Source: Acidimicrobiia bacterium
Lineage (GTDB): Bacteria; Actinomycetota; Acidimicrobiia; Acidimicrobiales; Bin134
Direction: 5' to 3'
Assembly (NCBI GenBank): GCA_009842675.1
Contig: VYEX01000064.1
Span: forward strand, 2,155 to 66,154
Length of the DNA stretch: 64,000 nucleotides
Shown here in pieces: positions 1,318 through 39,910 of the stretch. Numbering within the stretch: position 1 is the first letter of the stretch; every line of letters begins with the position of its first letter. The position numbers and the translations under genes are program-made. The notes under the pieces were generated by a model that saw only the letters and a program-made list of their open reading frames with translations, was not told the DNA's origin and ran no database searches.

Positions 1318-1788
1318 TCAAAGTCGTTTGTTGTTTCCGCAGCGTTCTACTCGGGAAGGGACAAGGCGGCCTTGAAATCTCAGTGATCTGCGCAGTACAT
1401 CTACATTGGCGGTTCGGTTGGCTTTTTTGTTGGCAAACAGGGCGGCTAGTTTGGCGGAACTGAGTGGTGAGAACATCCCGTCACCGGTGATCTTGTCGAT
1501 TCCCGCTTGAACTTGCGGAATCGCACCCTTGTCCATGACATTCTTAATCTCAACCACCAGCCACTCGTAGCCGTTACGGACTTTTCGCAAGATGACCAAG
1601 TCTGGCTTCGGATCGCTTGGGCCGAATGCCGAGCACTTATCACACTCAATCATTAGGCGAAGTCCAAGGATCAATAGCCGGCAGCCCTTATGGGTCACTG
1701 CGATCGGCTGGTCGAAGTTTGCAGAGGCAGTCCGTACGAGGCACCCACAACCGGCATGCAGGTGGCGGATTGCTTGAGGATTGGTCAA
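1318..1788 (-). CDS. minimal PD-(D/E)xK nuclease-like protein, possibly with an N-terminal Cys cluster
   Basis: 156-aa ORF. TTG start overlaps the upstream ATPase stop (TTGA at 1785-1788). Motif E48 ... P62-D63 (KPDLVIL) ... E80-I-K82 (VVEIK) matches the PD-(D/E)xK signature. Cys at positions 14, 16, 36, 49 and 52. The start codon is uncertain. Confidence 0.5.
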   Translation of the reverse strand: MTNPQAIRHLHAGCGCLVRTASANFDQPIAVTHKGCRLLILGLRLMIECDKCSAFGPSDPKPDLVILRKVRNGYEWLVVEIKNVMDKGAIPQVQAGIDKITGDGMFSPLSSAKLAALFANKKANRTANVDVLRRSLRFQGRLVPSRVERCGNNKRL

Positions 1789-3281
1789 TCGAGCATGCCA
1801 ATCAAGCGGGCAGATTCTTCGGTGAGGTCTTCTGCCACCTTGACGAACTCATCTTCAGGGATGCCCCATTGGGGATCAACTTCGACACGTTCTACGGTCA
1901 CCATCTTTTTTGATTCGTTCCGCACGAAGCGGTGGACTGCGAGGTCGTTCACCGCCAGAAAATCGTCTTGGGTATAGGCGGGCGTCAGCTCATCTGATGC
2001 TGATGCCGAAGTTTCGTGGCGCAGGACACAGTTTGAGATTTCATTGAGGAGTATTGAGCTGTGTGTCGCGCAAACGACTTGAACCCCGCAATTTGCCAGG
2101 CGAACGAGTACTCGTCCCATCAACCTGATGGCCTCAGGGTGCAAGTGCGACTCTGGTTCATCAACGATCAACAAATCGCCGGGTGCGAGCAGTCTCTCTA
2201 CCCAGATGGCCAGCGGTGCCAGGTCCGCCACCATTGAAGAGGCATGGCGTATGGCAATGCTGTGGCCGTCCTGCTCGTATGCGAGCGTCGGGACGATTTC
2301 GCCATCTGGTTCTGGGCTGATCGTTCCTTCCATGAGCACCTTGAGCAGTGAAATGGCTGGCATGAGAGCATCTTGTTCTGGTGGTCGTTCCGAGCCGAAG
2401 AAGCTAAAGGGACGGAACCGGCGTCGGGAGCCGTGGCCGAGGACATCGGCTAGCGAAGAAATGAAGTCTAGGGCGACTCCATCTAGGGATGGATCTGCAA
2501 ACGAGGGCAGCCCATAACGTTCCTTTTCTAGTTGAATGCGCAGCTTTACGACATCTGTCCAGGCGTTCAACAGCCCGGAGCGACCTGCTGGAAGATAGTG
2601 AGTATTGCCGCCAAGACGTGCGTCTACAAGAAAACTGTGCCAGTAACCCTGCGTCACAATCCACGCAAGGTGACCGTAGAGGTTAGCTAGCTCTTCGCTG
2701 CCTGTGTCTTGGTCGAACAGTGTCGGCAGTGGGAAAAATTCATCGAATTCCGTCCAATCAATCTCCAGCTCACTGAGGATTCTGCCGACCGGTGCCGTTG
2801 TCCCTCCACTGCCGAACAAGCACACATCAGCACCACCTACCTCCGAACTCTTCACTTCAAAACGAAGACCTTCGCCGTTGCCCCAAGAGGTGATGCGCGT
2901 CAATTCATCTACGCCGAAAGTGGCCTTCAACCTAAGCGAAACTTCACGCCCGGCGTCTTCAAGTCCGCTTCGGAGCGCTTGGGCGACGTAGTCGTGTAGC
3001 TGGACTGGCAGCCCTTGTCTTGCAATTCCATCGTTGACAAGGGCATCGTGACGCTCCCGAGCGAAGGCCTCCAAAGCCGTTCCCTCGTCGTTGCTTAGCT
3101 CCTCGACAGGTCGGGGCATAACACTGCGCACTGCCTGTCGGCACGCATACAGGGCCTGCGCGACGTAGGTCTTGCCGGTGTTGTTCCGGCCGATGAATAC
3201 CGTCAAAGGCCGCAACGCAACTTCACCGTGCTCGACCGGCCCTAGGTGGTCCACGACAAGCTGTAGCTCTGTCTTGCTCAC
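1785..3281 (-). CDS. ABC/SMC-like ATPase of the AAA_15/AAA_21 type
   Basis: 498 aa, GTG start. Walker A GRNNTGKT (aa 31-38). A roughly 330-aa insert is followed by Walker B/D-loop LLIVDEPESHLHP (aa 370-382) and H-loop VCATHS. GC is lower than the backbone. Confidence 0.85.
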   Translation of the reverse strand: MSKTELQLVVDHLGPVEHGEVALRPLTVFIGRNNTGKTYVAQALYACRQAVRSVMPRPVEELSNDEGTALEAFARERHDALVNDGIARQGLPVQLHDYVAQALRSGLEDAGREVSLRLKATFGVDELTRITSWGNGEGLRFEVKSSEVGGADVCLFGSGGTTAPVGRILSELEIDWTEFDEFFPLPTLFDQDTGSEELANLYGHLAWIVTQGYWHSFLVDARLGGNTHYLPAGRSGLLNAWTDVVKLRIQLEKERYGLPSFADPSLDGVALDFISSLADVLGHGSRRRFRPFSFFGSERPPEQDALMPAISLLKVLMEGTISPEPDGEIVPTLAYEQDGHSIAIRHASSMVADLAPLAIWVERLLAPGDLLIVDEPESHLHPEAIRLMGRVLVRLANCGVQVVCATHSSILLNEISNCVLRHETSASASDELTPAYTQDDFLAVNDLAVHRFVRNESKKMVTVERVEVDPQWGIPEDEFVKVAEDLTEESARLIGMLD

Positions 3282-3392
3282 TGCTCGCAGGCTATCGTTG
3301 TCTACAACCAGGCACCACGATGGGAGCAGCGGGGGCGTTGGGAAACTGGTGCCGCGTTATTCGCTTTCCAGTACCTGACCCACTTATGCAAC

Positions 3393-3402
3393 TTTTGCAA
3401 AA
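3393..3402. promoter_or_regulatory. 10-bp perfect palindrome TTTTGCAAAA in a divergent intergenic region
   Basis: Lies in the 250-bp gap between the divergently transcribed ATPase (start 3281) and HsdR-like gene (start 3532). Flanked by a TGCAA direct repeat. Confidence 0.25.
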
Positions 3403-3531
3403 TGGGCACACTGCCTGTTTTGCCGGTATTTCGAGATGGCCTTACTACCTCCCTAGCGGAGTGCGCGGGAGCGGGTATCGACGGGGCATAAGGTGTACGG
3501 GATGTTTCGAAGGCAGGAAGGGTGATGGCTG

Positions 3532-6500
3532 ATGCCCGCTGACGAGGCGGCGTTCGAGGAGCACATCGCCTCGTGGTTGGTGGAGCATGGGGGGTATCGG
3601 CGAGCCAAAGTCGGCAATGCCATGGGAGAGCCGCGCGATTTCGATCCCGGCGCGGGGGTGGATACGGCTGATCTGTTCGAGTTCATTGGGGCGACTCAGG
3701 CGGATCACTGGGAGCGGTTGGTGGAATCGGCTTATGGGGGCGATCCGAACCAGGCGCAGTCGGGATTCGTGCAGCGATTGGCGTCGGAGCTTGACAAGCG
3801 GGGGACGGTGGACGTGCTGCGCCGAGGTGTGGTGGACCGGAATGTCAAGATCCACCTGGCGTACTTCAAGCCAGCCCAGGGTCGCACGCCGGAGCTTGCC
3901 CAGCGGTATGAGGCGAACGTGTTGTCGGTTACCCGGCAACTGCCGTTTGAGCCGGACACGTCCCGAACCGTTGACTTGGGACTGTTCGTCAACGGAATAC
4001 CGGTGGCCACCGCGGAGTTGAAGAACCCGCTCACCGGCCAGACCGTCGAGAACGCCATTGCCCAGTACCGAACCGACCGGCCCTACAACAACAGAACGCT
4101 GGGACGGTTGGGCATGGTGCATTTCGCGGTCGATCCCGCATCGGCGGCCATGACCACCCGTCTGGCTGGTACCCGAACCCGGTTTCTGCCGTTCAACCGG
4201 GGGCACAACTTGGGCGCTGGGAACCCACCCAATCCCGACGGGCACCGCACCGCGTACCTGTGGGAGCAGGTGTGGTCGAGAGATGCATGGATGGACATTC
4301 TGGATCGCTACATCCATGTAGAGAAGCCATCCCGTGGCTCAAAGGCCCGCCCAGAGGTGATATTTCCGAGGTTCCACCAATGGGATGCGGTGCGGCGTCT
4401 TGAGGCCGACGCCAAAGAGCGCGGCGCGGGTCGCAGTTACCTGGTTCAGCACTCGGCAGGGTCGGGCAAATCAAATTCGATCGCCTGGTTGGCGCACCGG
4501 CTATCAAAGCTGCACACCGACGACGACGCCCAAGTGTTCAACAAGGTGGTGGTGATCACTGACCGTGTCGTGCTCGACCGCCAGCTTCAGGACACGATCA
4601 GTCAGTTCGAACACGCCCTTGGTGTGGTGGAGCGAATCGACGAGAACTCGGCTCAGCTGGCAGCGGCTCTTGCTGGTGAACAGGCCCGAATCATCGTCAC
4701 TACGTTGCAGAAGTTCCCGTTCATCATCGACAAGATCGAGTCGCTGCCCGAGCGCAACTACGCCGTGATCGTAGATGAGGCCCACTCGTCGCAGACTGGC
4801 GAGGCGGCCAGGGAGTTGCGTCGGGTGCTGGGCTCGGCCGAGCCCGAGACCGACACGGATATGGAAGCGGGAGAGGTCGAGACGCTGCTCGCCGAGGCGG
4901 TCGCTGCCCGCGGCCGTCAGCCCAACCTGTCGTTCTTCGCCTTCACTGCTACCCCCAAGGGCCGCACCTTGGAACTGTTCGGTGAGGCTGGTGACGGCAG
5001 CAGGCACGAGCCCTTCCACCTGTACCCGATGCGCCAGGCCATAGAGGAGGGCTTCATCGAGGATGTGTTGGCTGGGTATCTGACCTACAACCAGTACTTC
5101 CATCTGGAGAAGGCGATCCTCGACGACCCTGAGTACGACACCGACAAGGCCCGCACTGCGCTTGCCAGATTCGTCACCCTACATCCGGACAATCTGGCGC
5201 AGAAGGCGGAGATCATCGTCGAGCACTTCCGCACCAAGATTGCTCGACAGATGGGTGGCGAGGCCAAGGCGATGGTGGTGTGCTCGTCGCGGCCCCATGC
5301 GGTGCGGATGTGGGAGGCGCTGCGAGGCTACGCCAACAACCTGGGATACGACCTCGGAGTGCTGGTGGCATTTTCGGGCGAGGTCGAAGGGATGACCGAA
5401 TCTAAGGCCAACGGTTTCCCAGAGTCCCAGACCGCGGAGCAGTTCGACACCGACGAGTGGCAGATCATGGTGGTGGCAGAGAAGTTCCAGACAGGTTTCG
5501 ACCAGCCGAAGCTGGTCGCCATGTACGTGGACAAGACCCTCACAGGCCTGGCTGCGGTGCAGACCCTTTCAAGGCTCAATCGCATCCATCCCGATAAGTC
5601 GGGCACTTTCGTGATTGACTTCGTGAACGACGCCCATCAGATCGGCGAGGAGTTCGCGGTGTACCACGGCAAGACCGTCGCACCGCCGACCGATCCCAAC
5701 CTGCTGTTCGACACTCGTCGTGAGCTCGATGGCTTCGGCGTCCTAGATGCCGGAGAGATGCAGCGGGCGGCGACGCTGCTCTTGGGGGAGGGCAACCACG
5801 CTCAAATTGACGCCGCCCTTCAGCCTGCCGCGGACCGGTTCAGGGCGTTGGACGATGACGACCAGGCTGCGTTCCGGGACTCGCTGGCTCGATTTGTGAG
5901 GGTGTACGGGTTCTTGTCGCTGGTCGTGCCATTCCGCAATCCTGAATTGGAGCGCGACTACCTGTTCTGCCGAGCTCTGGCCGCTCTCATTCGGGATCGA
6001 GACCCTGGTGAGAGCATCAACTTGGGCACGGAGGTGGAGCTCACCCATCTTCGGCACGAGATCGCGTTCGAGGGCTCGATCTCACTGCCTGACGGCGACG
6101 GTGAGGTGACCACCATCTACTCCGGTACCGGACCGCTCACCGACCCAGAGGAAGAACGGCTGTCCCAGATCATCGCCCGCCTCAACGAGCGCTTTGGTAC
6201 CGACTGGACCGAAGAGGATCGCTTGGTGTTTGAGGCCGCAGCCGGGGATCTCGTCTCGGACGCCGAGATCCAAAACCAGGCGGTGAATAACGACGAGGTC
6301 ACCTTCCGCACCCACGTTTTCCCGGCGCGCTACGAGAAAGCCCTGTTGTCTCGGATTGACCGCAATAGCGACCTCATCTACGCCTACCTCGACAGCAACG
6401 AGCTTCAGGCCGAGGTCATGGACATCTTTGCCGTCAATGTTCAGAGGCGCGCCGCCGTCGCGAGGCAGCGGACCTGCCCCATAGGCGATCTGCTTGGACC

Positions 6501-6987
6501 AGATCGAGAGTCGTTGTTCTTGGAGTACAAGTCCACCCTCCGCTGGGACATCCGAGAGCAGCGAAGGGGAGGCATTCCTGAGGACGCCGTAATCAAGACC
6601 ATTGCTGGCTTTGCCAACTCCGAGTACGGAGGGACCCTCCTGGTTGGTGTGGCCGACGACGGTTCGATCCACGGATTGGAAGACGACTACGCCACCTTCT
6701 CTCGACGCGGCGAGCGAGGTGACCAAGACCTGTGGGGCCAGCACCTTCAGAATCTGATTCGCAGCCGCCTAGGTGATGCGGTCCTCCCCCTCGTCTCCTG
6801 GGAGTTCCACACTGTCAACGGCAACCATCTAGCCCGAATCAGCATCGACCCATCAGGTTTCCCAGTCCTTGAGCGCAATGATGTAGACGAGATTTTCTGG
6901 CTCAGAACTCCAACTTCTACAATTCCGATTCTTGACTCCAATGAAAGAGATCAAATTCTGACACGTCGATGGGGAAGCCTTACGTGA
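3532..6987 (+). CDS. type I restriction R-subunit-like (HsdR-like) nuclease/helicase fused to a C-terminal AlbA_2 (Schlafen-like) domain
   Basis: 1151 aa, with AGGAAGG upstream of the ATG. Contains the N-terminal nuclease motif VD148LGLF...AE162LK164, helicase motif I HSAGSGKS (aa 307-314) and DEAH (aa 415-418). Also has a HsdR-type C-terminal helical region. The tail from about aa 990 (LFLEYKSTLRW...IAGFANSEYGGTLLVGVADDGSIHGL) is typical of AlbA_2. Confidence 0.85.
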   Translation: MPADEAAFEEHIASWLVEHGGYRRAKVGNAMGEPRDFDPGAGVDTADLFEFIGATQADHWERLVESAYGGDPNQAQSGFVQRLASELDKRGTVDVLRRGVVDRNVKIHLAYFKPAQGRTPELAQRYEANVLSVTRQLPFEPDTSRTVDLGLFVNGIPVATAELKNPLTGQTVENAIAQYRTDRPYNNRTLGRLGMVHFAVDPASAAMTTRLAGTRTRFLPFNRGHNLGAGNPPNPDGHRTAYLWEQVWSRDAWMDILDRYIHVEKPSRGSKARPEVIFPRFHQWDAVRRLEADAKERGAGRSYLVQHSAGSGKSNSIAWLAHRLSKLHTDDDAQVFNKVVVITDRVVLDRQLQDTISQFEHALGVVERIDENSAQLAAALAGEQARIIVTTLQKFPFIIDKIESLPERNYAVIVDEAHSSQTGEAARELRRVLGSAEPETDTDMEAGEVETLLAEAVAARGRQPNLSFFAFTATPKGRTLELFGEAGDGSRHEPFHLYPMRQAIEEGFIEDVLAGYLTYNQYFHLEKAILDDPEYDTDKARTALARFVTLHPDNLAQKAEIIVEHFRTKIARQMGGEAKAMVVCSSRPHAVRMWEALRGYANNLGYDLGVLVAFSGEVEGMTESKANGFPESQTAEQFDTDEWQIMVVAEKFQTGFDQPKLVAMYVDKTLTGLAAVQTLSRLNRIHPDKSGTFVIDFVNDAHQIGEEFAVYHGKTVAPPTDPNLLFDTRRELDGFGVLDAGEMQRAATLLLGEGNHAQIDAALQPAADRFRALDDDDQAAFRDSLARFVRVYGFLSLVVPFRNPELERDYLFCRALAALIRDRDPGESINLGTEVELTHLRHEIAFEGSISLPDGDGEVTTIYSGTGPLTDPEEERLSQIIARLNERFGTDWTEEDRLVFEAAAGDLVSDAEIQNQAVNNDEVTFRTHVFPARYEKALLSRIDRNSDLIYAYLDSNELQAEVMDIFAVNVQRRAAVARQRTCPIGDLLGPDRESLFLEYKSTLRWDIREQRRGGIPEDAVIKTIAGFANSEYGGTLLVGVADDGSIHGLEDDYATFSRRGERGDQDLWGQHLQNLIRSRLGDAVLPLVSWEFHTVNGNHLARISIDPSGFPVLERNDVDEIFWLRTPTSTIPILDSNERDQILTRRWGSLT

Positions 6988-7464: not shown

Positions 7465-8016
7465 TCAAATAGTTTGAGTGCCGTCGACGCCGAGGGCGAT
7501 GGCGAGGACGATGGCGATGCCGCCGAGGAGGCGGGCGGTGACCGAGAGCAGGGGGGTGGGGACGGCTCGGAACCACAGCAGGGCGGCGGTGACCAATGCG
7601 GCCAGCACCACGCCGGCCATGGTGCGGAGGGTGCCGTCGTGGGCGGCGGTGGCCAGCACCACGGCGACGAGCTGGGGGGTGAACAGCACCGTCAGGGCGA
7701 TAAGGGCCACTTGGGTCCCGGCCCGGGGCTCGTCGTGGACGGGGTGGTCGGGCCACACCATCCACCACAGTCCGGCAACGGCGAAGGGCACCGCGGTGGC
7801 TAGCCGCCACGTGCCTGTCGTCACCGACAGGCCGTCGAGGATGGGATCAGCCAGCGCGGCGATCACCCACAGCGCGCCCACCGCGGCAACCACGGCCAGC
7901 GCTACCCGGGGCCGCCACTGATCACGGTTGGAGGGCCGCCAGGCCACGCTCAGCGCGCCCGCGGCCGGGTTGGCCGCGGCCAGCACCATCAACATCACCG
8001 GTCCGAGTCCGCTCAT
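7465..8016 (-). CDS. integral membrane protein (MarC/UPF0056-like, tentative)
   Basis: 183 aa, about 6 hydrophobic helices, high GC3. Last gene of the minus-strand operon 11474..7465. Confidence 0.55.
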   Translation of the reverse strand: MSGLGPVMLMVLAAANPAAGALSVAWRPSNRDQWRPRVALAVVAAVGALWVIAALADPILDGLSVTTGTWRLATAVPFAVAGLWWMVWPDHPVHDEPRAGTQVALIALTVLFTPQLVAVVLATAAHDGTLRTMAGVVLAALVTAALLWFRAVPTPLLSVTARLLGGIAIVLAIALGVDGTQTI

Positions 8017-8097: not shown

Positions 8098-9225
8098 TCA
8101 TGGCTTGTTTCCTCCGAGGTTGAAACTGACATCGGCCATCAACAGGCCGGAGATGGCGTGCTGCTGGTCGTCCACTCGTGTTTGATCGTCGTAGTACCAA
8201 GCGCCGTCGTCGGCCTGGGCTTCGGCCAAGCGGGCCGCGCCGCACTCCAGCCGATCCCGCAACGGAGCGTCGGCGAGGCGGGGCTCGTTGAGCCAGAGCC
8301 ACTCCAGGGCGCCCAGCCCCTCCAGAATGGTCCCGTAGCCGCCGCCGCGTGGCATGGGCAGATGGGAGATCTTGGCCACGCCCTCCCGCTGGGCGTCCCA
8401 GCGGATCATCTGCCCGAACCGCCCGGCCAAGCGCTCGGCATAGGCCAGGTGGTGGTCTTCCAAGCCCCACTCGGCCGTCTCGCCCAAGGTGTAGGCCGCC
8501 CACTGATCGGGCCATGGCGGAGGCCAAAGCTCTTCCAACTCGTCCCGCTCGGTGGACAGATAGTCCAAGATGGCCCACACCGGGGCATCCCACCCCTCGC
8601 CGGGAAATATCTCGTGCAAGAGCGCCAAACCCCAAGAGGCCTCGCCGGTGGCGAACCGGGACCGCTCCCCGGGCACCGGAGCGCCGGTCTTGGGGTCCCA
8701 GAAATTGAGCATCCCGCCGTCGGGCAGCTGCTGGCCCACCAGGAACCGGCCCAGCGCCCGCATCTCGCCGTCATAGCGGTCATCGCCGGTGAGGATGCGC
8801 CGATGGGCCAGCGACACCAGCGTCAGCGCGGCCGTGCCGGTTTTCACCGGACCTCGGGGCGACAGCGCCGGTCCCATGCCCCCGTTGCTGGTGTCCACGG
8901 CCCGCTCCAACAGGTAGTTCATGCCCCGATCGGCGGCTTCCACTACCTCCTGGTTTTGGCCCTCTTGGACAATGGCCAGCTGGTAGAGCGACATGGTGCC
9001 CCCGGCGTGGCGGACCAGGTTGTACCCCGGCTTCGCTGACTCAATTCGCCGGTCGTACTCGTACAGGTACCGCCCGCTGGGCTCCTGGGTGCGGACGATC
9101 CAGTCGGCCCCGGCGTCGATGGCCGACTGGCCGTCGCCGGGGGAGTAGGCCGGGCACACCTCGGGCGCGGCCAGCGTCACCCGCAACAACGCGGCCATCA
9201 CCACCCACACCACCGCCCAGGCCAT
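8098..9225 (-). CDS. membrane-anchored or secreted protein, possibly an alpha/alpha-toroid (terpenoid-cyclase / prenyltransferase-like repeat) fold
   Basis: The ORF is open to 9444. The ATG at 9225 (MAWAVVWVVMAALL, signal/anchor) avoids overlap with the upstream HTTM gene. Trp/Gly-rich repeats (QQLPDGG, ADDGAWYY). The family call is tentative. Confidence 0.45.
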   Translation of the reverse strand: MAWAVVWVVMAALLRVTLAAPEVCPAYSPGDGQSAIDAGADWIVRTQEPSGRYLYEYDRRIESAKPGYNLVRHAGGTMSLYQLAIVQEGQNQEVVEAADRGMNYLLERAVDTSNGGMGPALSPRGPVKTGTAALTLVSLAHRRILTGDDRYDGEMRALGRFLVGQQLPDGGMLNFWDPKTGAPVPGERSRFATGEASWGLALLHEIFPGEGWDAPVWAILDYLSTERDELEELWPPPWPDQWAAYTLGETAEWGLEDHHLAYAERLAGRFGQMIRWDAQREGVAKISHLPMPRGGGYGTILEGLGALEWLWLNEPRLADAPLRDRLECGAARLAEAQADDGAWYYDDQTRVDDQQHAISGLLMADVSFNLGGNKP

Positions 9226-9278
9226 GAGCCGGCGGGTGGCTCGCCCGGTCCAGAGTCGCCGCAGCGACGACAAAGCGC

Positions 9279-10358
9279 TCACCGGTACCGCCAGAACCGA
9301 GAAAACAGGAAGGTGGCCGGCAGCCGGGTCCGCACGAACTGGCGGGCTTCTCGTCCCTCCAGCACCGTGCCGTCGCGATCCACCATGCTCCACGATGCCC
9401 CTGGCGCCACGGTGATGTCGAACCGGGCCATCCAGTCCAGCCACCGCACCCAGCGACTAGGGGTGACCAGGGTGCGGTCGCGGGTGGAGGGAACTACCCA
9501 CAAGGCCAGGGCGCCGATGGCGATCACGCTGAACACCTGAACGTGGGCGCTCACCTCGATGCCCACGTGGAAGGCCACCGCCACCCACACCGCGGCCAGC
9601 CGGGTTCGGCGGAACCACAGACCGAAGGCGATGAACAGCTCGGTGGCCACCGCGGCTGGTGAAAGCACCCAGTGGAACGCCCGAGCGGTCAGCACGTCCA
9701 AGATGGGGTCGGCCAGCGTGTCGCCTAGGGCGTCGCGCACTTCATGCTGATATCGCACGGTGCGGTCGTGCAGCACCCGACCGCCTACCCAGTCGGGGTC
9801 GATCAGCTTGGAGAACCCCGAGGCGAAGTAGACGACGGCGGCTTCAAACCGCAGCAGCCACAGGGGCCACACCAATCCCCGGTCGTCAGACGGCGGGTGG
9901 CGAAGGGCGTCCAGCGACAGCGCCCGGCCGTTGTCGCACAGGGCCACCCCGGCCAACAGGATGACCAGAAACGCCCGGTTGTGGTGGAAGTGGGTTTGCG
10001 ACAAGAAGAGGTTGTAGGCCACCACCGCGAAGGCGGCCCATGTGGCGGTGCGCGACCACCAGCCCACGGTCATCAGCACTGCGGCGGCCACCCCGACCCA
10101 TAGCAGCGCTACATACAGCCCGGCTGGCGCGTTGGGATACCACGACCACCACGGCTGCTGGAAGCGGTCGTGGTAGGTGATGCCGTCCAGCGCGTCGGCC
10201 AGAAACGGACGCAAGTGCCAGATCACCGACGGACCCAGCACAATGCGCAGCACGGCCACACCCCGCACGCTGGCGGGCTGGTCGAATGCCTCGCTCAGCC
10301 ACCGCTGGTACCTCATCCGCCAGCCGGTGGCCGACGCAGCAGAAGCCGTGGCCGTCAT
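9279..10358 (-). CDS. HTTM domain (vitamin K-dependent gamma-carboxylase-like) integral membrane protein
   Basis: 359 aa. N-terminal VAVLRIVLGPSVIWHL-type HTTM start followed by multiple TM helices. The ATGA overlap with the upstream gene suggests translational coupling. Confidence 0.7.
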   Translation of the reverse strand: MTATASAASATGWRMRYQRWLSEAFDQPASVRGVAVLRIVLGPSVIWHLRPFLADALDGITYHDRFQQPWWSWYPNAPAGLYVALLWVGVAAAVLMTVGWWSRTATWAAFAVVAYNLFLSQTHFHHNRAFLVILLAGVALCDNGRALSLDALRHPPSDDRGLVWPLWLLRFEAAVVYFASGFSKLIDPDWVGGRVLHDRTVRYQHEVRDALGDTLADPILDVLTARAFHWVLSPAAVATELFIAFGLWFRRTRLAAVWVAVAFHVGIEVSAHVQVFSVIAIGALALWVVPSTRDRTLVTPSRWVRWLDWMARFDITVAPGASWSMVDRDGTVLEGREARQFVRTRLPATFLFSRFWRYR

Positions 10359-10849
10359 GGTCCGCCCAGCTCCCGCTCATGGCTGCGGACCACCGTGACA
10401 TAGGGGCCGCGAGCATTGCGGTAGTAAGTGACGGTGGCCTCCAAGTAGAGGGTTTCGGTATCACCGGGGGTGTTGTCGGCCACCCAGTTCAGGGCGTTGT
10501 CCAAGAAGTCCACCACTGCATCCACGCCAGAAAAGGCGTGGCGCTGATGCCATGGAGACCGCAGAGGTCCCCAGTCGATCAGCTCGTTCCAGTGGTAGCC
10601 CTCCCAGCGGCCGTTGGGTACCGGTACTCGCTCGCCGTCGTCCAGAACCCGAACCAGTTCCACTGCATAGGTGCTGGACTCGTTGAACGGCTGGAAGGCG
10701 AAGTAGTTGTGCGGATCCCGGTAGCCATTGGCCACCAGCGCGAGTTGAGCGACCACCACGGCGGCGGCGAACCATCGGGCCCCTCGCCGGCGCCAGAGGG
10801 GGCGGGGCTTGGCCGCCGCCTGTGAGACAGCGTCAGCCGCCGTCGCCAT
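10355..10849 (-). CDS. hypothetical membrane-anchored protein (HTTM-associated)
   Basis: 164 aa. One N-terminal TM helix (WFAAAVVVAQLALVA). Start and stop overlap both neighbours. Confidence 0.45.
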   Translation of the reverse strand: MATAADAVSQAAAKPRPLWRRRGARWFAAAVVVAQLALVANGYRDPHNYFAFQPFNESSTYAVELVRVLDDGERVPVPNGRWEGYHWNELIDWGPLRSPWHQRHAFSGVDAVVDFLDNALNWVADNTPGDTETLYLEATVTYYRNARGPYVTVVRSHERELGGP

Positions 10850-11474
10850 ACCTCTGCTTGTAGGCCTCCAGATCGGGGGGCAGGCGGTCGCGTTTGAGCT
10901 CGGCGAAGTTGTCGTAGGCGGTCAGCCAGCGGGTGTGGCGCCACAGCTCCACCGCCTCTTCGGTCGACTCCGGCGGGTTGCTGATCACCGGGCCGAACAG
11001 CGCTGGGCCTCGGCCGCCTTCTAAACGGATAGTGGGCACCCCGAAGCTGCGGGTCTCGTCGCACAAGATGGTGTGCTCGGACTTCAGCGTCTCCCAGGTG
11101 CTGTCGTCGGCCAGGGCATCATCCACCAGGCTGGCGTCGAATCCGGCGTCGACTGCGGCGGCCTTAATTGTGTCAATCTCATTCACCGACTCCACCAGGT
11201 CGAACACCCGGTGGCCGATGGCCTGGTAGTAGGCGCCGATGCCTTCGTTGCCGCCCACCTCGCGGGCCTTGACCGCGGTGCGCAGCGAGGCCACGCCCAC
11301 TCCCCGGTCAGGGTCAAACTCCTCCATCGGCTTGTCCCAGTTGACGATGGCCAAGGAGAACAGGCCCCAGGTCACGCTCACCTCACCGGCGTCTTCGATC
11401 TGACGAACCCAACGGGCTGTCTGCCAACACCACGGTCAAAGCGGGTCGAAATAAAAGGTGATGGGCTCGCTCAT
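10833..11474 (-). CDS. DsbA/FrnE-like thioredoxin-fold oxidoreductase with in-frame TGA at the first CxxC position (candidate selenoprotein, otherwise a pseudogene)
   Basis: The ATG at 11474 is preceded by GGGAGAG. It reads MSEPITFYFDPL-TGA(11438-11436)-PWCWQTARWVRQIEDAGEVSVTWGLF and continues in frame into the track ORF 10833..11381. The TGA sits where DsbA-family proteins carry the nucleophilic Cys. Confidence 0.55.
11402..11421 (-). promoter_or_regulatory. candidate bacterial SECIS-like hairpin
   Basis: mRNA 5'-GAC AGCCC GUU GGGUU C GUC-3' forms an 8-bp stem (one G-U pair, one bulged C). The G/U-containing apical loop starts 14 nt after the UGA. Confidence 0.3.
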
Positions 11475-11512
11475 CAGGCTCTCTCCCTGTTCCAGTTCAT
11501 CGGACTCTCAAT

Positions 11513-12535
11513 TTAACCCAGGATGACCTCGGCGATGGTCCGCAGCTCGTCTGCCGATCGGGCGCCCACGTTGATGCCGGTGATCGGGCTCTCCTCCCAG
11601 GCCGCCAGCCGGTCGCGGATCCGCTCTGGCGATCCCACCAGGGAGATCTCGTCGGCGAATTGGTCGGGCACCGCGGCAATGGCCTCTTCCCGCCGGCCCT
11701 CAAAGAAGAGGTCTTGGATGTGGTAGGCCTCCTCCTCGAACCCCATCCGGGCCATGAGCTTGGTGTGGTAGTTCTGGCCCTTGGCCCCCATGCCCCCGAT
11801 GTAGAAGCCCAGCGAGGCCTTGGTGGGCAACAGCGCTTCGGCCAGCTCTTCGTCGGAGTTGCCGGTGACCTTGATCGTGGTGTGGACGGTGATCTCGAAG
11901 TCGTCGGAGCGCCCGGCGATCGATTCGGCGTACACCTCGGGGCGGAACGGGGAGTAGTACAGCGGCAGCCAGCCGTCGGCGATTTCCACCGTCTGGGCGA
12001 TGTTCTTGGGACCCTCGGCGCCGATGAAGATGGGGATGTCGGCCCGGGGGGGATGGGTCATGATCTTGAGCGGCTTGCCCAGGCCGGTGTCGCCCTCTCC
12101 CTTGTAGGGGTGGTTGTAGTAGTCGCCCTCGAAGGTCAGATAGCCGTCTCGGGCGAACACCCGCCGCAGGATCTCCACGTACTCCCGGGTGCGGGCCAGA
12201 GGACGGTTGCCGGGTTGGCCGTACCATCCCTCCACCACTTGGGGGCCGGACACGCCCAAGCCCAGGATGAGCCGCTGGTTGGACAGGTGGTCGGCGGTGA
12301 CTGCATGCATGGCCGTTGCCGTGGGGGTGCGGGCGGCCAGCTGCACGATGCCGGTGCCCAAGCGGATGCGCTCGGTGTGGGCGGCCAGCCAGACCAGGGG
12401 CGAAAAGGCGTCGGAGCCCCACGACTCCGCCGTCCACACCGAGTCGTAGCCCATCCGCTCGGCCTCCTGGGTTAGGGGCACGAAGCCCTCCGGCATCCCA
12501 CGGCTCCAATATCCCCAGACCAGTCCGAGTTTCAT
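11513..12535 (-). CDS. LLM-class (luciferase-like) F420-dependent oxidoreductase
   Basis: 340 aa. [10 protein letters not shown]...[16 protein letters not shown]...[16 protein letters not shown] is typical of the family. Confidence 0.8.
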
Positions 12536-19549: not shown

Positions 19550-20011
19550 GTGGAAGTAACGGTCACCATAAATGGGGACAGCCACACCCACGATGTAGAG
19601 CCGCGCACGCTGCTGGTTCACTACATCCGCGACGTGGTTGGCCTCACCGGCACCAACATCGGGTGCGACACCTCCTCGTGCGGCGCCTGCACCATTCATG
19701 TGAACGGCGAGTCGGTGAAGTCCTGCACCATGCTGGCTGTGCAGGCCGACGGGCAGGACCTCTTGACTATCGAGGGACTGGCCGACGGCGACGTACTCCA
19801 CCCCATGCAGGAGTCGTTCCGCCAGTGCCACGCTCTCCAGTGCGGCTATTGCACGCCGGGCATGGTCATGGCCGCCGTCTCGCTGCTGGATGAGAATCCC
19901 GATCCCACCGAGCGGGAAGTCCGCATCGGGCTCGAGGGCAACCTCTGCCGCTGCACCGGGTACCACAACATCGTCAAAGCTGTTCTGCACTGCGCGGAGG
20001 CCTCGTCATGA
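19550..20011 (+). CDS. [2Fe-2S]-binding small subunit of a molybdenum hydroxylase (CoxS/CutS type)
   Basis: [10 protein letters not shown] and CGYCTPG...CRCTGY iron-sulfur motifs. GTG start. Confidence 0.9.
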
Positions 20012-20832
20012 TTCCTGCGGCATTCGACTACATCCGGGCCGGATCGGCCGACGAAGCGCTGGCCGCGCTGGCCGAGCACGGCGACGAGGCCAAGCTGCTG
20101 GCCGGGGGTCATTCCCTGCTGCCGCTGATGAAGCTGCGGCTGGCCACCCCCGCGGTTCTGGTGGACATCGGCCGCCTCGACGACCTCAGCTACATCAACG
20201 ACGCCGGCGACCATCTGGCCATCGGCGCCCTTACCCGCCATCGCGACGTGGAGACCAGCGAGCTGGTGCAGTCGCAGGCCGGGCTGCTGGCCGAGGCCAC
20301 CAGCCACGTGGGCGATCCTCAGGTGCGCCACCGGGGCACCATCGGCGGCTCCATCGCCCACGGCGATCCCGCATCCGACCTGCCGTCAGTGATGCTGGCC
20401 ATGCGGGCCACCCTGGTGGCTCGGGGACCGGGCGGCGAGCGGGAGATCGCGGTGGACGACTTCTTCACCGGTTTCTTGGAGACCGCTCTGGGCGACGACG
20501 AACTGCTCACCGAGATTCGGGTGCCCAAGATGCCCGATGCCACATGGGGCTTCCAGAAGTTCAACCGCCGGGCCCAGGACTGGGCCATCGTGGGCGTGTC
20601 GGCCATCGTCGACAACGGCAGCGCCGGCGTGGGGCTGGTGAACATGGACAGCACTCCGGTCCGGGCTGCTGGTGTGGAGGCCGCCCTGTCTGGGGGAGCG
20701 TCGGCCGCCGACGCGGCCGAATCGGCCGCTGAGGGCACCAACCCGCCATCTGACCTGAACGCCGGCCCCGAGTACCGGGAGCATCTCGCCCGGGTGCTCA
20801 CCCGCCGGGCGCTCGAAGCCGCTGGACGCTAA
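20008..20832 (+). CDS. FAD-binding medium subunit of a molybdenum hydroxylase (CoxM/CutM type)
   Basis: [21 protein letters not shown]...[15 protein letters not shown]. Overlaps the upstream stop. Confidence 0.9.
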
Positions 20833-20842
20833 CGCCCAGCCC

Positions 20843-21757
20843 TTGGGCCCTCAGCCCTCATCGGCTGCCGAGGTGGCCGACGGGCTAAAGGGCTGTGACT
20901 ACCTGGCCGACGAGGGGTTGGCCACGGCCGTGTTCTTGGCCATGACCTTGAACCGCCCCCTGCTCCTCGAGGGCGAGCCCGGCGTGGGCAAGACCGAGAC
21001 GGCCAACGCCTTGGCCGTGTGGACCGGCGGAGAGCTGATACGCCTCCAGTGCTACGAGGGCATCGATGTGGCCCAGGCGGTGTACGAGTGGGACTACTCC
21101 CGCCAGCTCCTACACCTGCGCACGGCGGAAGCTACCGGGGGAGCCACCCGAGAGATGGCCGACGCCCTGGAAGACGAGCTGTACTCCGAGCGTTTTTTGA
21201 TCAGGCGCCCCCTGCTGCGGGCCATCGCGGCCTCCGAAGGGCCGCCGCCGGTGCTGTTGATTGACGAGGTCGACCGGGCCGATGACGAGTTCGAGGCCTT
21301 TCTGCTGGAGATCCTGTCCGACTATGCGGTGACCGTGCCCGAGATCGGCCGGTTCGCGGCCGTCACGCCGCCTCGGGTCATCATCACCTCCAATCGCACC
21401 CGCGACGTTCACGACGCCCTCAAGCGGCGCTGTCTGTACCACTGGGTGGAGCACCCCAGCTTCGAGCGGGAGGTGGCCATCATCGGCCGCCGGGCCCCCG
21501 GAGTGAGCGAGTTGCTGGCCCGCCAGGTGGCTGCCGCGGTGGCCGCATTCCGGGAGCTGGGCCTGTACAAGCCCCCCGGTGTGGCCGAGAGCATCGATTG
21601 GAGCCTGGCGCTGGGCCGACTCGGGGCCGCCGAGCTGAGCCCTGAGATTACCCAGGCCAGCCTGGGATCGGTGCTCAAGTACCGGGAAGACCAGCAGCGG
21701 GTAGTCGACCAGGGCATTGGTGGCCTGATCGAACAGGCCATCGCCCGTGCAGGTTGA
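20843..21757 (+). CDS. MoxR-like AAA+ ATPase (CoxD type)
   Basis: Walker A GEPGVGKT and Walker B LLIDEVDR. Confidence 0.85.
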   Translation: MGPQPSSAAEVADGLKGCDYLADEGLATAVFLAMTLNRPLLLEGEPGVGKTETANALAVWTGGELIRLQCYEGIDVAQAVYEWDYSRQLLHLRTAEATGGATREMADALEDELYSERFLIRRPLLRAIAASEGPPPVLLIDEVDRADDEFEAFLLEILSDYAVTVPEIGRFAAVTPPRVIITSNRTRDVHDALKRRCLYHWVEHPSFEREVAIIGRRAPGVSELLARQVAAAVAAFRELGLYKPPGVAESIDWSLALGRLGAAELSPEITQASLGSVLKYREDQQRVVDQGIGGLIEQAIARAG

Positions 21758-22904
21758 CGAGATTGCGGTTGGATTCGTAAATGCGCTGAGAGGCGCGGGC
21801 ATCGACGTGGCCGTGGGGTCGTCGGTGAACTACTACCAGGCGCTCAGCGCGGTGGGCGTGGAGCAGCGCAGCTCGGTGTACTGGGCTGGCCGGGCCACCC
21901 TGGTCACCGAACCCGACGACATTGAGCTCTACGACAAGATCTTCGACGCCTACTACGGCGGACAGCAGCTGGTGGCCACCCCGGTGATGGAAGTGACCCA
22001 GCCCATCACCCTGGTGGTGGACGACGACGGGGACGACGAGACTGAAGGCGACGGGGACGACGAAGACCCCGGCGATCCCACTCTCACGCTGCGGTGGAGC
22101 CGCCACGAGGTGCTGCGCGACAAAGACTTCGCCGATTACGACGACGACGAGCTCGACGAGGCCCACCGGCTCATGGCCGCCATGGCCCGTATTGGCGGCA
22201 CCCGTCGGTCTCGCCGCCGACGCCGCACTCACCGCACCGCTGGGCACCCCGAGCTGCGGCGCACGGTGCGGGCCGCCATCCGCAGCGGCGGAGAGCCGGT
22301 GCGGCGCTGGTACACCGAGCCGGGTGAGCGGCTACGGCGGGTGGTTCTGCTGCTGGACATATCGGGGTCGATGGAGTCGTACGCACGAGCGCTCATCCGC
22401 TTCGTCCATGCCGCGGTGGTGGGTCGGCGCCGAGTGGAGGTGTTCACCATCGGCACCCGGCTGACCCGCATTACCCGTGAGCTTTCGTCGCGAGACCCCG
22501 ACCGGGCGCTGGGTGCGGCCACCGACGCAGTGAGCGACTGGTCGGGGGGCACCCGTCTGGGCGACACCCTGGCCGAGTTCAACGAGCTGTGGGGTATCCG
22601 GGGCATGGCCCGGGGAGCAACCGTGGTCATATTGAGCGACGGCTGGGACAGGGGCAGCCCCGAAGTGATGGCCGAGCAGATGGCCCGATTGCACCGGGTG
22701 ACCCATAGACTCGTATGGGTGAATCCGCTGAAGGCCACCCCGGGCTACCAGCCCCTGGCCCAGGGCATGGCCGCCGCCTTGCCCCATGTGGACGACTTCA
22801 TCGAAGGCCATTCGCTGCAATCGTTGGATCGCCTCGCTGAGGTGCTGGCCGACGACCGGTCTCCGGCCGATGCTCGCCTCATGATTGGAGCAGGCGCAGA
22901 ATGA
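21747..22904 (+). CDS. VWA domain protein (CoxE type)
   Basis: MIDAS motif LLLDISGSM. Acidic N-terminal half. Confidence 0.8.
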   Translation: MQVDEIAVGFVNALRGAGIDVAVGSSVNYYQALSAVGVEQRSSVYWAGRATLVTEPDDIELYDKIFDAYYGGQQLVATPVMEVTQPITLVVDDDGDDETEGDGDDEDPGDPTLTLRWSRHEVLRDKDFADYDDDELDEAHRLMAAMARIGGTRRSRRRRRTHRTAGHPELRRTVRAAIRSGGEPVRRWYTEPGERLRRVVLLLDISGSMESYARALIRFVHAAVVGRRRVEVFTIGTRLTRITRELSSRDPDRALGAATDAVSDWSGGTRLGDTLAEFNELWGIRGMARGATVVILSDGWDRGSPEVMAEQMARLHRVTHRLVWVNPLKATPGYQPLAQGMAAALPHVDDFIEGHSLQSLDRLAEVLADDRSPADARLMIGAGAE

Positions 22905-23215
22905 AAGAAATCCTTTCGGATTTGGACGCTTGGCGGGCCGAAGGCCGACAGGTGGCGCTGGCCCGGGTGGTCAACGTGGAGGGCTCCGGCCCCCGTGACC
23001 CCGGTGCGGCCATGGCGGTCAGCGACAACGGCGACGTGATCGGATCGGTATCGGGCGGATGCGTGGAGGGCGCAGTAGTAGTTGAGGCCCTCGACATCTT
23101 GGAGAGCGGTGAGCGGCGCATGGTCAGCTTCGGCTATAGCGACGACGAGGCATTCGCAGTGGGCCTCACCTGCGGGGGCACGATCCACCTGTTCATCGAA
23201 CCGCTGGACTGGTAG
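22901..23215 (+). CDS. XdhC/CoxI-family N-terminal-domain protein (short form)
   Basis: 104 aa. LARVVNVEGSGPRDPGAAMAV...GSVSGGCVE. Confidence 0.75.
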   Translation: MKEILSDLDAWRAEGRQVALARVVNVEGSGPRDPGAAMAVSDNGDVIGSVSGGCVEGAVVVEALDILESGERRMVSFGYSDDEAFAVGLTCGGTIHLFIEPLDW

Positions 23216-38261: not shown

Positions 38262-38903
38262 GTGCCAGTTGTTAGGCAGGTTGTCGATCAGAAGTGCTTC
38301 AATCCCGAGGTCTCCTTGCCCTATGAGCTTCGGGTTCATGACTTCACATCGGCAATGCAGGATGTCTACGACTTCTTTTTCGACGTGAACTCGCACCTCA
38401 CAAACAAAGGCCTTGGACGCTTGGAGGACACACTGCGGAAGGCCAATCTGTCCGGGACGCTTTCGGACATGGTCACGGCAAGTCTGGCAAAGCACTCCAG
38501 GGTCCTCACCCAGAACCGCTATCACAATGGGCACCCTGATTTGATCGTCAAGGGCATATTCGCCAACGACTCAGTGAAAGCTGGAGATGAGGGTGTTGAG
38601 ATCAAGACGACGGTGAAGAAGGGCGGGGCAGTTGATACCCACGGCGCGCGAGATCAGTGGCTCTGCGTTTTCGTCTACGAAGCAGACAACGAGACCGAGC
38701 CAGCCATTGATCGCCAACCGCTGAGGTTCACCGAGGTGTACCTGTCGCATGTGCAGATTGACGACTTCAGAAGGAACGATCGAGGCGAACTGGGTACTCG
38801 CACGGCAACTCTCCACAAAGAGGGCATTCAGAAACTGCGCCGCAGCTGGGTTTATCTCGATATGGGATCAGTAGATGACACCGAGTCAGGACAAGGTTCG
38901 TAG
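38262..38903 (+). CDS. candidate type II restriction endonuclease (PD-(D/E)xK)
   Basis: 213 aa in a lower-GC islet, convergent with and overlapping the methyltransferase 3' end. GHPDLIVKG...DEGVEIKTT matches PD...ExK. The start (GTG) is uncertain. Confidence 0.55.
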   Translation: MPVVRQVVDQKCFNPEVSLPYELRVHDFTSAMQDVYDFFFDVNSHLTNKGLGRLEDTLRKANLSGTLSDMVTASLAKHSRVLTQNRYHNGHPDLIVKGIFANDSVKAGDEGVEIKTTVKKGGAVDTHGARDQWLCVFVYEADNETEPAIDRQPLRFTEVYLSHVQIDDFRRNDRGELGTRTATLHKEGIQKLRRSWVYLDMGSVDDTESGQGS

Positions 38904-39910
38904 TCCTTCAGCAACGGGATGGCAGCTTTGGCCAACTGCAAATACTCAGGATCAGACTCCACTCCAGTGCTTGCGTAGCCGATGTGCTCGGCTGCTGCGA
39001 TAGTAGAGCCGGATCCTGCGAACGGATCGAGAACAACTCCCTCTCCCATCGGCAAGATTGCCCGTACTGCTTGACGCAGAAAAGCCTGCGGCTTGAGGCT
39101 GGGGTGGGGAGCTAGTCGCCGTTCATCTGGCCGGGTCGGTGCAGATGCAATCACATCGCCAAACGGTCGATCGGATGAGATGCGCCTCAGTCCTCCAGTT
39201 CCCCACTTGCGCAAGTTGTCCTGCACCCGACCAGCCAACGGCTTGCGGAACAGTAGCCAAGGCTCCCATTTCGACCTTGGCATGACGGTCACGTCAGGGA
39301 ATTCCTCATGGGCGTTCTTTGGGCGATCACCGCCCCGCATCGTCATCACAAGCCTGACGACCTCTCCCCTCCTTTCGAAACCGGAACGGCACACCGCTAC
39401 AGCCACCCGGTGCGAAAGGAGGGGATTCGACGCAACAAGTACATGGGCGCCAGGCACCAGTGTAGGAAGGAGGGCGTCTGCCCAAGAGGAGAAGAAGCTG
39501 TCAAGAGCATCAAGATCTGATGCGGTCAGCGTGGTGAACCTGGGCACTGGTGATCGCTGGTGGCCGTCGAACGCAGGCGGGAGACGCCACACGCCTCCCC
39601 GGCCACGGCGGAGTTTTCGCTGCTGCTCTGGCTGATATTCCACAAGGCCGTAGGGGGGGTCGGTGACCACCCCATGAATCGAATTCGCGGGTTGGTCAGC
39701 CAGCCAGTCCAAGCAGTCGCCGTGAAACAACGAGGCTCGCCCGACCTGATAGGCGGGGGTCCATACTGGACTGAATGCTGCTTCAGCCGAGTTGATAGAC
39801 GCCACGCTGCACTCTCCTGAACTGCTTGGCTGGCCCTGTGTTGAGGTTGAGGTAGCTGCGAACGGACGACCCAGCGACTCTGGTTCCAAGTCGAGCTTCA
39901 ACTGCGGCAT
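38852..39910 (-). CDS. beta-class DNA methyltransferase (N6-adenine or N4-cytosine)
   Basis: Motif IV VVTDPPYG lies N-terminal to motif I VLDPFAGSGST. Alternative GTG start at 39805 with AGGAGA upstream. The long form overlaps the wHTH ORF by 128 nt. Confidence 0.85.
   Translation of the reverse strand: MPQLKLDLEPESLGRPFAATSTSTQGQPSSSGECSVASINSAEAAFSPVWTPAYQVGRASLFHGDCLDWLADQPANSIHGVVTDPPYGLVEYQPEQQRKLRRGRGGVWRLPPAFDGHQRSPVPRFTTLTASDLDALDSFFSSWADALLPTLVPGAHVLVASNPLLSHRVAVAVCRSGFERRGEVVRLVMTMRGGDRPKNAHEEFPDVTVMPRSKWEPWLLFRKPLAGRVQDNLRKWGTGGLRRISSDRPFGDVIASAPTRPDERRLAPHPSLKPQAFLRQAVRAILPMGEGVVLDPFAGSGSTIAAAEHIGYASTGVESDPEYLQLAKAAIPLLKDYEPCPDSVSSTDPISR

Follow-up and report, generated by a model that had tools for sequence, protein, structure and literature searches.

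Does the in-frame TGA near the 5' end of a thioredoxin-fold gene in a sponge-associated bacterium end translation, or does it encode selenocysteine (Sec)? The gene lies on the minus strand of a 64,000-nt stretch of Acidimicrobiia contig VYEX01000064.1 (assembly GCA_009842675.1), which we analysed over its whole length and refer to as the window. Gene prediction lists a 182-residue open reading frame (ORF) at this site, beginning with a GTG at 11381. A first-pass annotation of the DNA had instead read from an ATG at 11474 through a TGA at 11438-11436 into this ORF, and had proposed a UxxC selenoprotein of the DsbA/FrnE type. All of these coordinates proved to be correct. The minus-strand codons from the ATG onwards are ATG AGC GAG CCC ATC ACC TTT TAT TTC GAC CCG CTT TGA CCG TGG TGT TGG CAG. 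Their translation, MSEPITFYFDPL*PWCWQTARWV, is in frame with the 182-residue ORF and continues uninterrupted to a stop codon at 10835-10833.

Our comparisons indicate that the gene very probably encodes a real selenoprotein, with a UPWC motif in which Sec stands for the nucleophilic Cys. The UGA is conserved at the position of Cys19 of Mycobacterium tuberculosis Rv2466c, and Sec and Cys codons alternate at this position among about 150 orthologues. Moreover, the coding sequence is conserved on both sides of the codon, and the nucleotides directly downstream of it are constrained specifically in the Sec forms.

Conservation of the UGA and of the frame across it

An orthologue scan with one genome per species returned 80 loci. 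The active-site codon was TGA in 53 of these loci and TGC or TGT, each one base away, in the other 27. The TGA forms range from 98% down to 53% identity to the window protein. Among the 76 scorable loci in Joint Genome Institute (JGI) metagenomes, seven had TGA, all from the same clades as the TGA forms in genomes, and 66 had Cys codons. Because TGA occupies the same codon in 53 of the 80 genome loci and in seven metagenome loci, it occurs there more often than chance would allow. A database search gave a concordant picture. The closest relatives were all N-terminally short (164-197 residues, with varied starts) and the distant relatives were full length with CPWC. The DNA of three of the short relatives has TGA at the same codon, one of them at a protein identity of only ~59%.

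All hosts of the TGA form are uncultured sponge-associated Acidimicrobiia. They comprise Candidatus Poriferisocius (85-98% identity to the window), a Candidatus Spongiisocius-like group (56-59%), two lower-GC lineages (L054 and L062; 53-55%) and a separate lineage (L066). The window DNA is 96.6% identical to the Ca. Poriferisocius chromosome OZ242341.1, and the TGA form is present on complete Poriferisocius chromosomes (e.g. OZ242341.1, OZ242355.1 and NZ_OZ241965.1), on OZ220474.1 and on the Spongiisocius-type chromosomes OZ242194.1 and OZ220687.1. In a neighbour-joining tree, the TGA forms fell into two Sec clades: a large one, within which a single Cys form from a Poriferisocius genome (L039) is nested, and a small one consisting of L066 and L093. 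As read from these sequences, the distribution follows the classic Sec/Cys pattern and involves at least two transitions as well as one reversal. The chromosome of L039 (OZ244918.1, 2.93 Mb) is the smallest among the Poriferisocius chromosomes listed, and its local GC content is 48.8% versus ~66%. With its decayed downstream 'SECIS' region (discussed below), L039 may be a genome-reduced lineage from which the Sec trait has been lost.

The immediate context of the codon is conserved as well. A U stands directly before this codon in 49 of the 53 unique Sec forms (codons CTT, ACT, GTT and ATT, most of which are rare in this genome), versus only 2 of the 25 Cys forms. The C after the UGA is invariant, which yields a conserved U-UGA-C context.

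Upstream of the UGA, the 11 codons that follow the start codon show mostly synonymous changes in comparison with 13 orthologues, and the FYFDP core is retained in all groups, to overall identities as low as 53%. Each of the 11 orthologues examined has exactly one in-frame stop within a full frame of 210-237 codons; the further frame disruptions that would betray a decaying pseudogene were found in none of them. The internal starts picked by gene callers vary between genomes and are not conserved. For instance, the GTG that opens the 182-residue ORF is GTA in 2 of 35 relatives. This start is an artefact; as remarked earlier, an ORF beginning there would lack the active site altogether.

TGA is the stop codon of 25 of the 39 confident ORFs in the window, and hence there is no genome-wide reassignment of the code. 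When the 64-kb window was scanned for genes that code on both sides of a TGA, no other case was found and the target alone was recovered. A cluster look-up returned no public names for the truncated products. These sequence comparisons imply that purifying selection acts on both sides of the UGA, and that the gene is translated through this codon and is neither truncated nor a pseudogene.

Protein family and active site

For the family searches we substituted Cys for the in-frame stop. Residues 12-195 matched the complete Pfam profile PF22234 (Rv2466c-like, described as mycothiol-dependent nitroreductase/mycoredoxin-2; positions 1-180 of 180), scoring 97.5 bits where 27 is the cut-off. PF01323, the general DSBA domain, was also detected, with the motif UPWC, at 41.2 bits against a cut-off of 25.6, and no NCBIfam model matched the protein. 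Residues 6-200 align with the structures of M. tuberculosis Rv2466c (4ZIL, 4NXI and 5XUR), with E = 5e-28 for 4ZIL and E = 1e-34 when the family profile was used. In this alignment the FDPL-C-PWCW stretch is identical to Rv2466c, and the adjoining flank (WQT/WIT) is identical or similar. The UGA position is therefore equivalent to Cys19 of Rv2466c. It also coincides with the first Cys of CPWC in the Cys-form relatives, which agrees with the proposal that the TGA replaces the nucleophilic Cys. In Rv2466c, Cys19 is the initial nucleophile and reacts with mycothiol, after which Cys22 resolves (PMC11841060).

The DsbA-like part of the original family assignment was upheld by the PF01323 match; the FrnE part was not. 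FrnE, the archetype of COG2761, matched the subfamily profile only marginally (E = 0.004, 19.8 bits, ~60 residues), so that 'Rv2466c-like' is, judged by these profiles, a more accurate label than 'FrnE-like'. We predict that the protein, with its 213 residues, acts in the cytoplasm as a thiol-disulfide reductase and that it falls within the DsbA-like thioredoxin superfamily, in the Rv2466c/mycoredoxin-2 branch.

Candidate downstream RNA element and the decoding of the UGA

A hairpin downstream of the UGA had been put forward in the first-pass annotation as a possible Sec insertion sequence (SECIS). This hairpin, GAC-AGCCC-GUU-GGGUU-C-GUC (11421-11402), is present as drawn and fits the bacterial SECIS (bSECIS) model. 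It begins 14 nt past the UGA and has a folding energy of -7.2 kcal/mol (z = -2.1), with 7 of 200 shuffles being as good. In most Poriferisocius sequences the stem extends to 11427-11400, forming 11 bp (CUGGC-A-GA-CA-GCCC[GUU]GGGU-UC-GUCAG) with the loop 22 nt past the UGA. All 48 of the 48 Sec forms agree with the published bSECIS criteria. Part of the hairpin is dictated by the encoded residues, as A/S/F-R/K-W-V yields xCC-xGx-UGG-GUx. A permissive Rfam scan of 11300-11520 returned nothing relevant. A different helix suggested by RNAalifold (CCNUGG with CCGY..GG) was rejected as the SECIS, because the Cys forms encode the same helix.

Nucleotide conservation downstream of the UGA goes beyond the encoded protein. 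Synonymous sites hardly vary in codons +5 to +12 of the Poriferisocius group. The rare downstream codons ACA, CGT, GTT and CGT (4.0%, 6.1%, 7.8% and 6.1% of their synonymous sets, respectively) are fixed in 34-35 of the 35 sequences, and the flanking codons CTT (3.8%) and CCA (6.4%) are rare too. The sole variable site is ACA/ACG, where pairing with U is preserved.

The sister lineages L038 (Sec) and L039 (Cys) were compared with a Poriferisocius sequence as reference. In L038 only 1 of the 36 nucleotides after the codon differed, at a divergence of 29.1% in the rest of the gene (P = 6.7e-5). In contrast, L039 differed at 7 of the 36 nucleotides at a rest-of-gene divergence of 29.3% (P = 0.13), and its differences include three amino-acid changes at positions that are otherwise invariant in the group. 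Likewise, the divergence of the 36 nt relative to that of the gene was 0.19-0.41 for Sec pairs with the same local peptide, versus 0.60-0.65 for comparable Cys pairs. When all Sec-Sec pairs were compared with all Cys-Cys pairs, there was no global difference in 36-nt divergence; the two big Sec groups differ downstream, so that only within-group comparisons are informative. Because the nucleotide constraint is tied to the state of the UGA codon, a SECIS-like element most likely lies within 11400-11435, with the hairpin at 11421-11402 as the best candidate.

In the mechanism that we propose, the ribosome would start at the ATG at 11474 and reach the UGA at 11438-11436. An mRNA element in the ~36 nt directly after the UGA, for which the hairpin containing GCCC[GUU]GGGU is the best candidate, would recruit SelB and Sec-tRNA(Sec), and Sec would be inserted at position 13 instead of termination. 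Like Cys19 in Rv2466c, the resulting selenolate would attack substrate disulfides or mixed disulfides, and would thus replace the Cys19 thiolate as the nucleophile of the monothiol/dithiol exchange cycle. Cys16 would then resolve the selenenylsulfide. The insertion of Sec, the identity of the SECIS and the presence of selA, selB and selC in the genome are parts of this scheme that we infer.

Several results weigh against this scheme. The published bSECIS criteria are also satisfied by 23 of the 25 Cys forms, and the model does not discriminate in this GC-rich gene. The RNAalifold consensus of 22 diverse Sec forms is weak (-4.4 kcal/mol) and has no robust covariation, and the 63 nt after the UGA are not more structured than shuffles (z ~0). 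Nor does the hairpin exceed synonymous recodings of the peptide in stability, with the exception of one Spongiisocius-type sequence (P = 0.006). Hence, the hairpin was confirmed as a structure, but not as a structure by which Sec and Cys forms can be told apart. The Poriferisocius and Spongiisocius groups have no downstream sequence in common, and the element would therefore be lineage-specific. Furthermore, no selA, selB, selD or tRNA-Sec lies within the 64-kb window, where tRNA and Rfam scans gave no hit and a six-frame motif scan for SelA, SelB and SelD signatures was negative. The genome of locus L013 (a TGA form with 92% identity) is bin134, a metagenome-assembled genome (MAG) of a sponge-symbiont of the Sva0996 Acidimicrobiia, which is ~90% complete and consists of 224 contigs (PMC5649159). 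For bin134, the only annotated genome of the lineage, Table S4 of Slaby et al. (2017) gives SelD = 1, SelA = 0 and SelB = 0 (PMC5649159).

We regard the bin134 result as genuine evidence against Sec insertion, and it lowers our confidence in the selenoprotein to the level expressed at the outset. It is explained most simply by an incomplete MAG or divergent genes; the listing of SelD without SelA and SelB means either that the MAG is incomplete, that SelD is an orphan or that the machinery is divergent. The other Acidimicrobiia bin in the same table has SelA, SelB and SelD, and SelA and SelB co-occur in most symbiont bins of Aplysina aerophoba and are rare in free-living relatives (PMC5649159). 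Accession numbers and GC content gave no link between the SelA/SelB-positive bin76 of that study and the metagenome accessions LXNI/LXNJ or the group-B loci. Another order of the Acidimicrobiia carries the full Sec machinery; selA, selC and selD are present in all of its complete genomes, and its SelB is divergent and falls below annotation thresholds (bioRxiv 10.64898/2026.04.03.716425).

We also searched 32 related loci with ARAGORN, which reported tRNA-Arg(CCT) only. This tRNA gene lies on the opposite strand, shortly downstream, in L003 (4591-4665), L054 (2219-2293), L059 (3248-3322) and L062 (2159-2233). It thus stands beside the gene in Spongiisocius-type and lower-GC Sec lineages and is absent from the Poriferisocius-type loci scanned.

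If the UGA is translated without canonical SelA, SelB and tRNA-Sec, the codon could be decoded by near-cognate read-through with Trp or Cys, by a Cys-inserting tRNA-Sec-like tRNA or by strongly divergent machinery. We consider this unlikely, although it accounts for the conservation on both sides of a site that is read through, for SelD without SelA or SelB in the only annotated genome of the lineage and for the lack of a discriminating SECIS, and although the conserved U(-1) and C(+1) create a weak-termination context. Trp at the position of the nucleophile would inactivate the enzyme, and with Cys only one base away, the persistence of TGA in more than 50 species fits only something better than Cys. 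The genes selA and selB are usually adjacent, and one contig missing from a MAG that is ~90% complete could remove both of them. In addition, the SelB of another Acidimicrobiia order escaped the annotation thresholds, and a downstream constraint specific to the UGA form is what a SECIS predicts. The more specific possibility that Poriferisocius-type symbionts decode the UGA without canonical SelA and SelB, through strongly divergent or novel Sec machinery or through a dedicated non-Sec recoding, has a somewhat smaller chance still.

It is even less probable that the UGA is a genuine stop, leaving a truncated product without CxxC that starts at an internal GTG or ATG, or a decaying pseudogene. 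Truncated products are called in all public assemblies, and this genome normally uses TGA as its stop codon. Yet the start codon, the PWC and the 12 codons ahead of the UGA stay conserved in lineages down to 53% identity, most of the changes being synonymous, whereas the internal starts are not conserved and none of the orthologues examined has a second disruption. Moreover, truncation would deprive the thioredoxin fold, which aligns with Rv2466c, of its first strand and its active site. A sequencing or assembly error for TGC would require the change of a single base, but over 60 independent assemblies, which come from different projects and host samples and have differing synonymous substitutions in the flanks, all show TGA here. 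The error is thereby effectively refuted, and its probability is next to nil. On balance, we favour insertion of Sec at this codon.

Gene context and relation to known systems

The coordinates of the gene, its elements and its neighbours are listed in Table 1. The GGGAGAG described earlier as a Shine-Dalgarno sequence was found before the ATG. The selenoprotein gene, the gene of the 164-residue protein and the HTTM gene have overlapping ends and run in the same direction, and hence they probably form one operon, at least in the Poriferisocius group. The LLM oxidoreductase lies upstream of the selenoprotein gene in L001 and L002 as well. L001 retains the linkage of the selenoprotein gene with the HTTM gene, which the Spongiisocius-type locus L003 lacks. 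The HTTM gene is followed by two further ORFs without a Pfam match (8098-9444 and 7465-8016).

Table 1. Features of the recoded gene and its neighbourhood (positions in the window).
Feature	Position	Strand	Remarks
Full coding sequence, Rv2466c-like (Mrx2/DsbA-like) protein	10833..11474	-	213 codons with one internal UGA; own stop TGA at 10835-10833
Start codon ATG	11472..11474	-	12 codons 5' of the UGA; conserved in 35/35 unique Poriferisocius-group sequences
Shine-Dalgarno-like GGGAGAG	11481..11487	-	6 nt before the ATG; stop of the upstream gene 38 nt back; read from the sequence
In-frame UGA, putative Sec codon, equivalent of Rv2466c Cys19	11436..11438	-	From codon conservation and alignment
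Redox motif U-P-W-C (TGA CCG TGG TGT)	11427..11438	-	
Eleven codons SEPITFYFDPL before the UGA, omitted by gene callers	11439..11471	-	First beta-strand region of the thioredoxin fold
36 nt after the UGA, with nucleotide-level constraint in Sec forms	11400..11435	-	Contains the candidate SECIS
Candidate SECIS hairpin GACAGCCC[GUU]GGGUUCGUC	11402..11421	-	8 bp with one bulged C; apical loop GUU begins 22 nt past the UGA
GTG start of the 182-residue ORF (10833..11381)	11379..11381	-	Artefact of reading the UGA as a stop
Luciferase-like (LLM) oxidoreductase, upstream, co-directional	11513..12535	-	Pfam PF00296, 218 bits
164-residue protein	10355-10849	-	No Pfam match; 17-nt overlap with the selenoprotein gene
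HTTM-domain (vitamin-K-carboxylase-like) membrane protein	9279-10358	-	4-nt overlap with the gene of the 164-residue protein

Elsewhere in the window, a number of candidate genes were recognised by eye from their translations. In the region 1318-6987, one ORF is AAA-ATPase-like (1785-3281) and a large helicase-like protein (3532-6987) looks similar to the R subunit of a type I restriction enzyme; a DNA-methyltransferase-like ORF (38852-39910) stands beside a possible endonuclease (38262-38903). These restriction- and methyltransferase-like candidates would fit the enrichment of defence genes reported for sponge symbionts. A cluster at 19550-23215 resembles the small and medium subunits of aerobic CO-dehydrogenase/xanthine-dehydrogenase, followed by candidate MoxR-type AAA, VWA and XdhC-like accessory genes.

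The precedent cited for a selenoprotein of this kind is sound. The 'DsbA-like protein' with UxxC has been a predicted selenoprotein family since the Sargasso Sea survey, with further predictions from later surveys of genomes, and it is listed as 'DsbA-like form 1' (PF01323) in a 2026 catalogue (PMC1088965, PMC13188914). In the library searched, we found no paper linking Rv2466c with selenocysteine, and none linking selenoproteins with sponge Acidimicrobiia. The kind of protein is already known, and by sequence the Rv2466c-like branch appears distant from FrnE/COG2761. The finding is solid and of use in annotation, although it would come as no surprise to a specialist in selenoproteins. It would add the Rv2466c/mycoredoxin-2 branch to the DsbA-like proteins that exist as UxxC selenoproteins. 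The cysteine homologue Rv2466c is the activator of antitubercular prodrugs. Over 50 public genomes from abundant sponge symbionts at present have the gene mis-called as an N-terminally truncated 'hypothetical protein' without active site. Furthermore, a Sec lineage and its equally diverged Cys sister, with the downstream RNA preserved in the Sec lineage only, provide a natural experiment that could define the actinobacterial SECIS. A selenoprotein would also be in keeping with reports that Sec machinery is enriched in sponge symbionts, and would mark selenium as a likely factor in their redox defence.

Among the known systems, Rv2466c/Mrx2 (PF22234; 4ZIL, 4NXI and 5XUR) belongs to the same family as the window protein by Pfam and by an alignment of ~195 residues, and it has the same FDPL-x-PWCW active site. 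The two proteins share ~30-35% identity over the aligned region, and the sponge symbiont protein differs from Rv2466c in having a UGA, putatively Sec, in place of Cys19. The hosts differ as well, since the window gene belongs to uncultured sponge-associated Acidimicrobiia, and so does the gene neighbourhood, which consists here of the LLM oxidoreductase, the selenoprotein gene, the 164-residue protein and the HTTM protein.

The Cys-form orthologues occur in Ilumatobacteraceae, Euzebyaceae, Nitriliruptorales, Egibacteraceae and one Ca. Poriferisocius lineage (L039 / P0005). They resemble the window protein in their full length, their identity of 45-74%, the CPWC context and the C-terminal motifs TRSFGVPTI, FGPVISNP and NFxELKRDR. 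They differ from it in their TGC or TGT codon, in a base -1 that is rarely U and in the downstream 36 nt, which are not specially conserved. The published DsbA-like UxxC family (COG2761/PF01323) has in common with the window protein the thioredoxin fold, Sec as the first residue of the CxxC motif and a match to PF01323 above its cut-off, and both have been recognised from Sec/Cys homology rather than by experiment. In contrast to the protein described here, for which FrnE is only a marginal match, the published family was defined through COG2761, that is, through proteins of the FrnE type.

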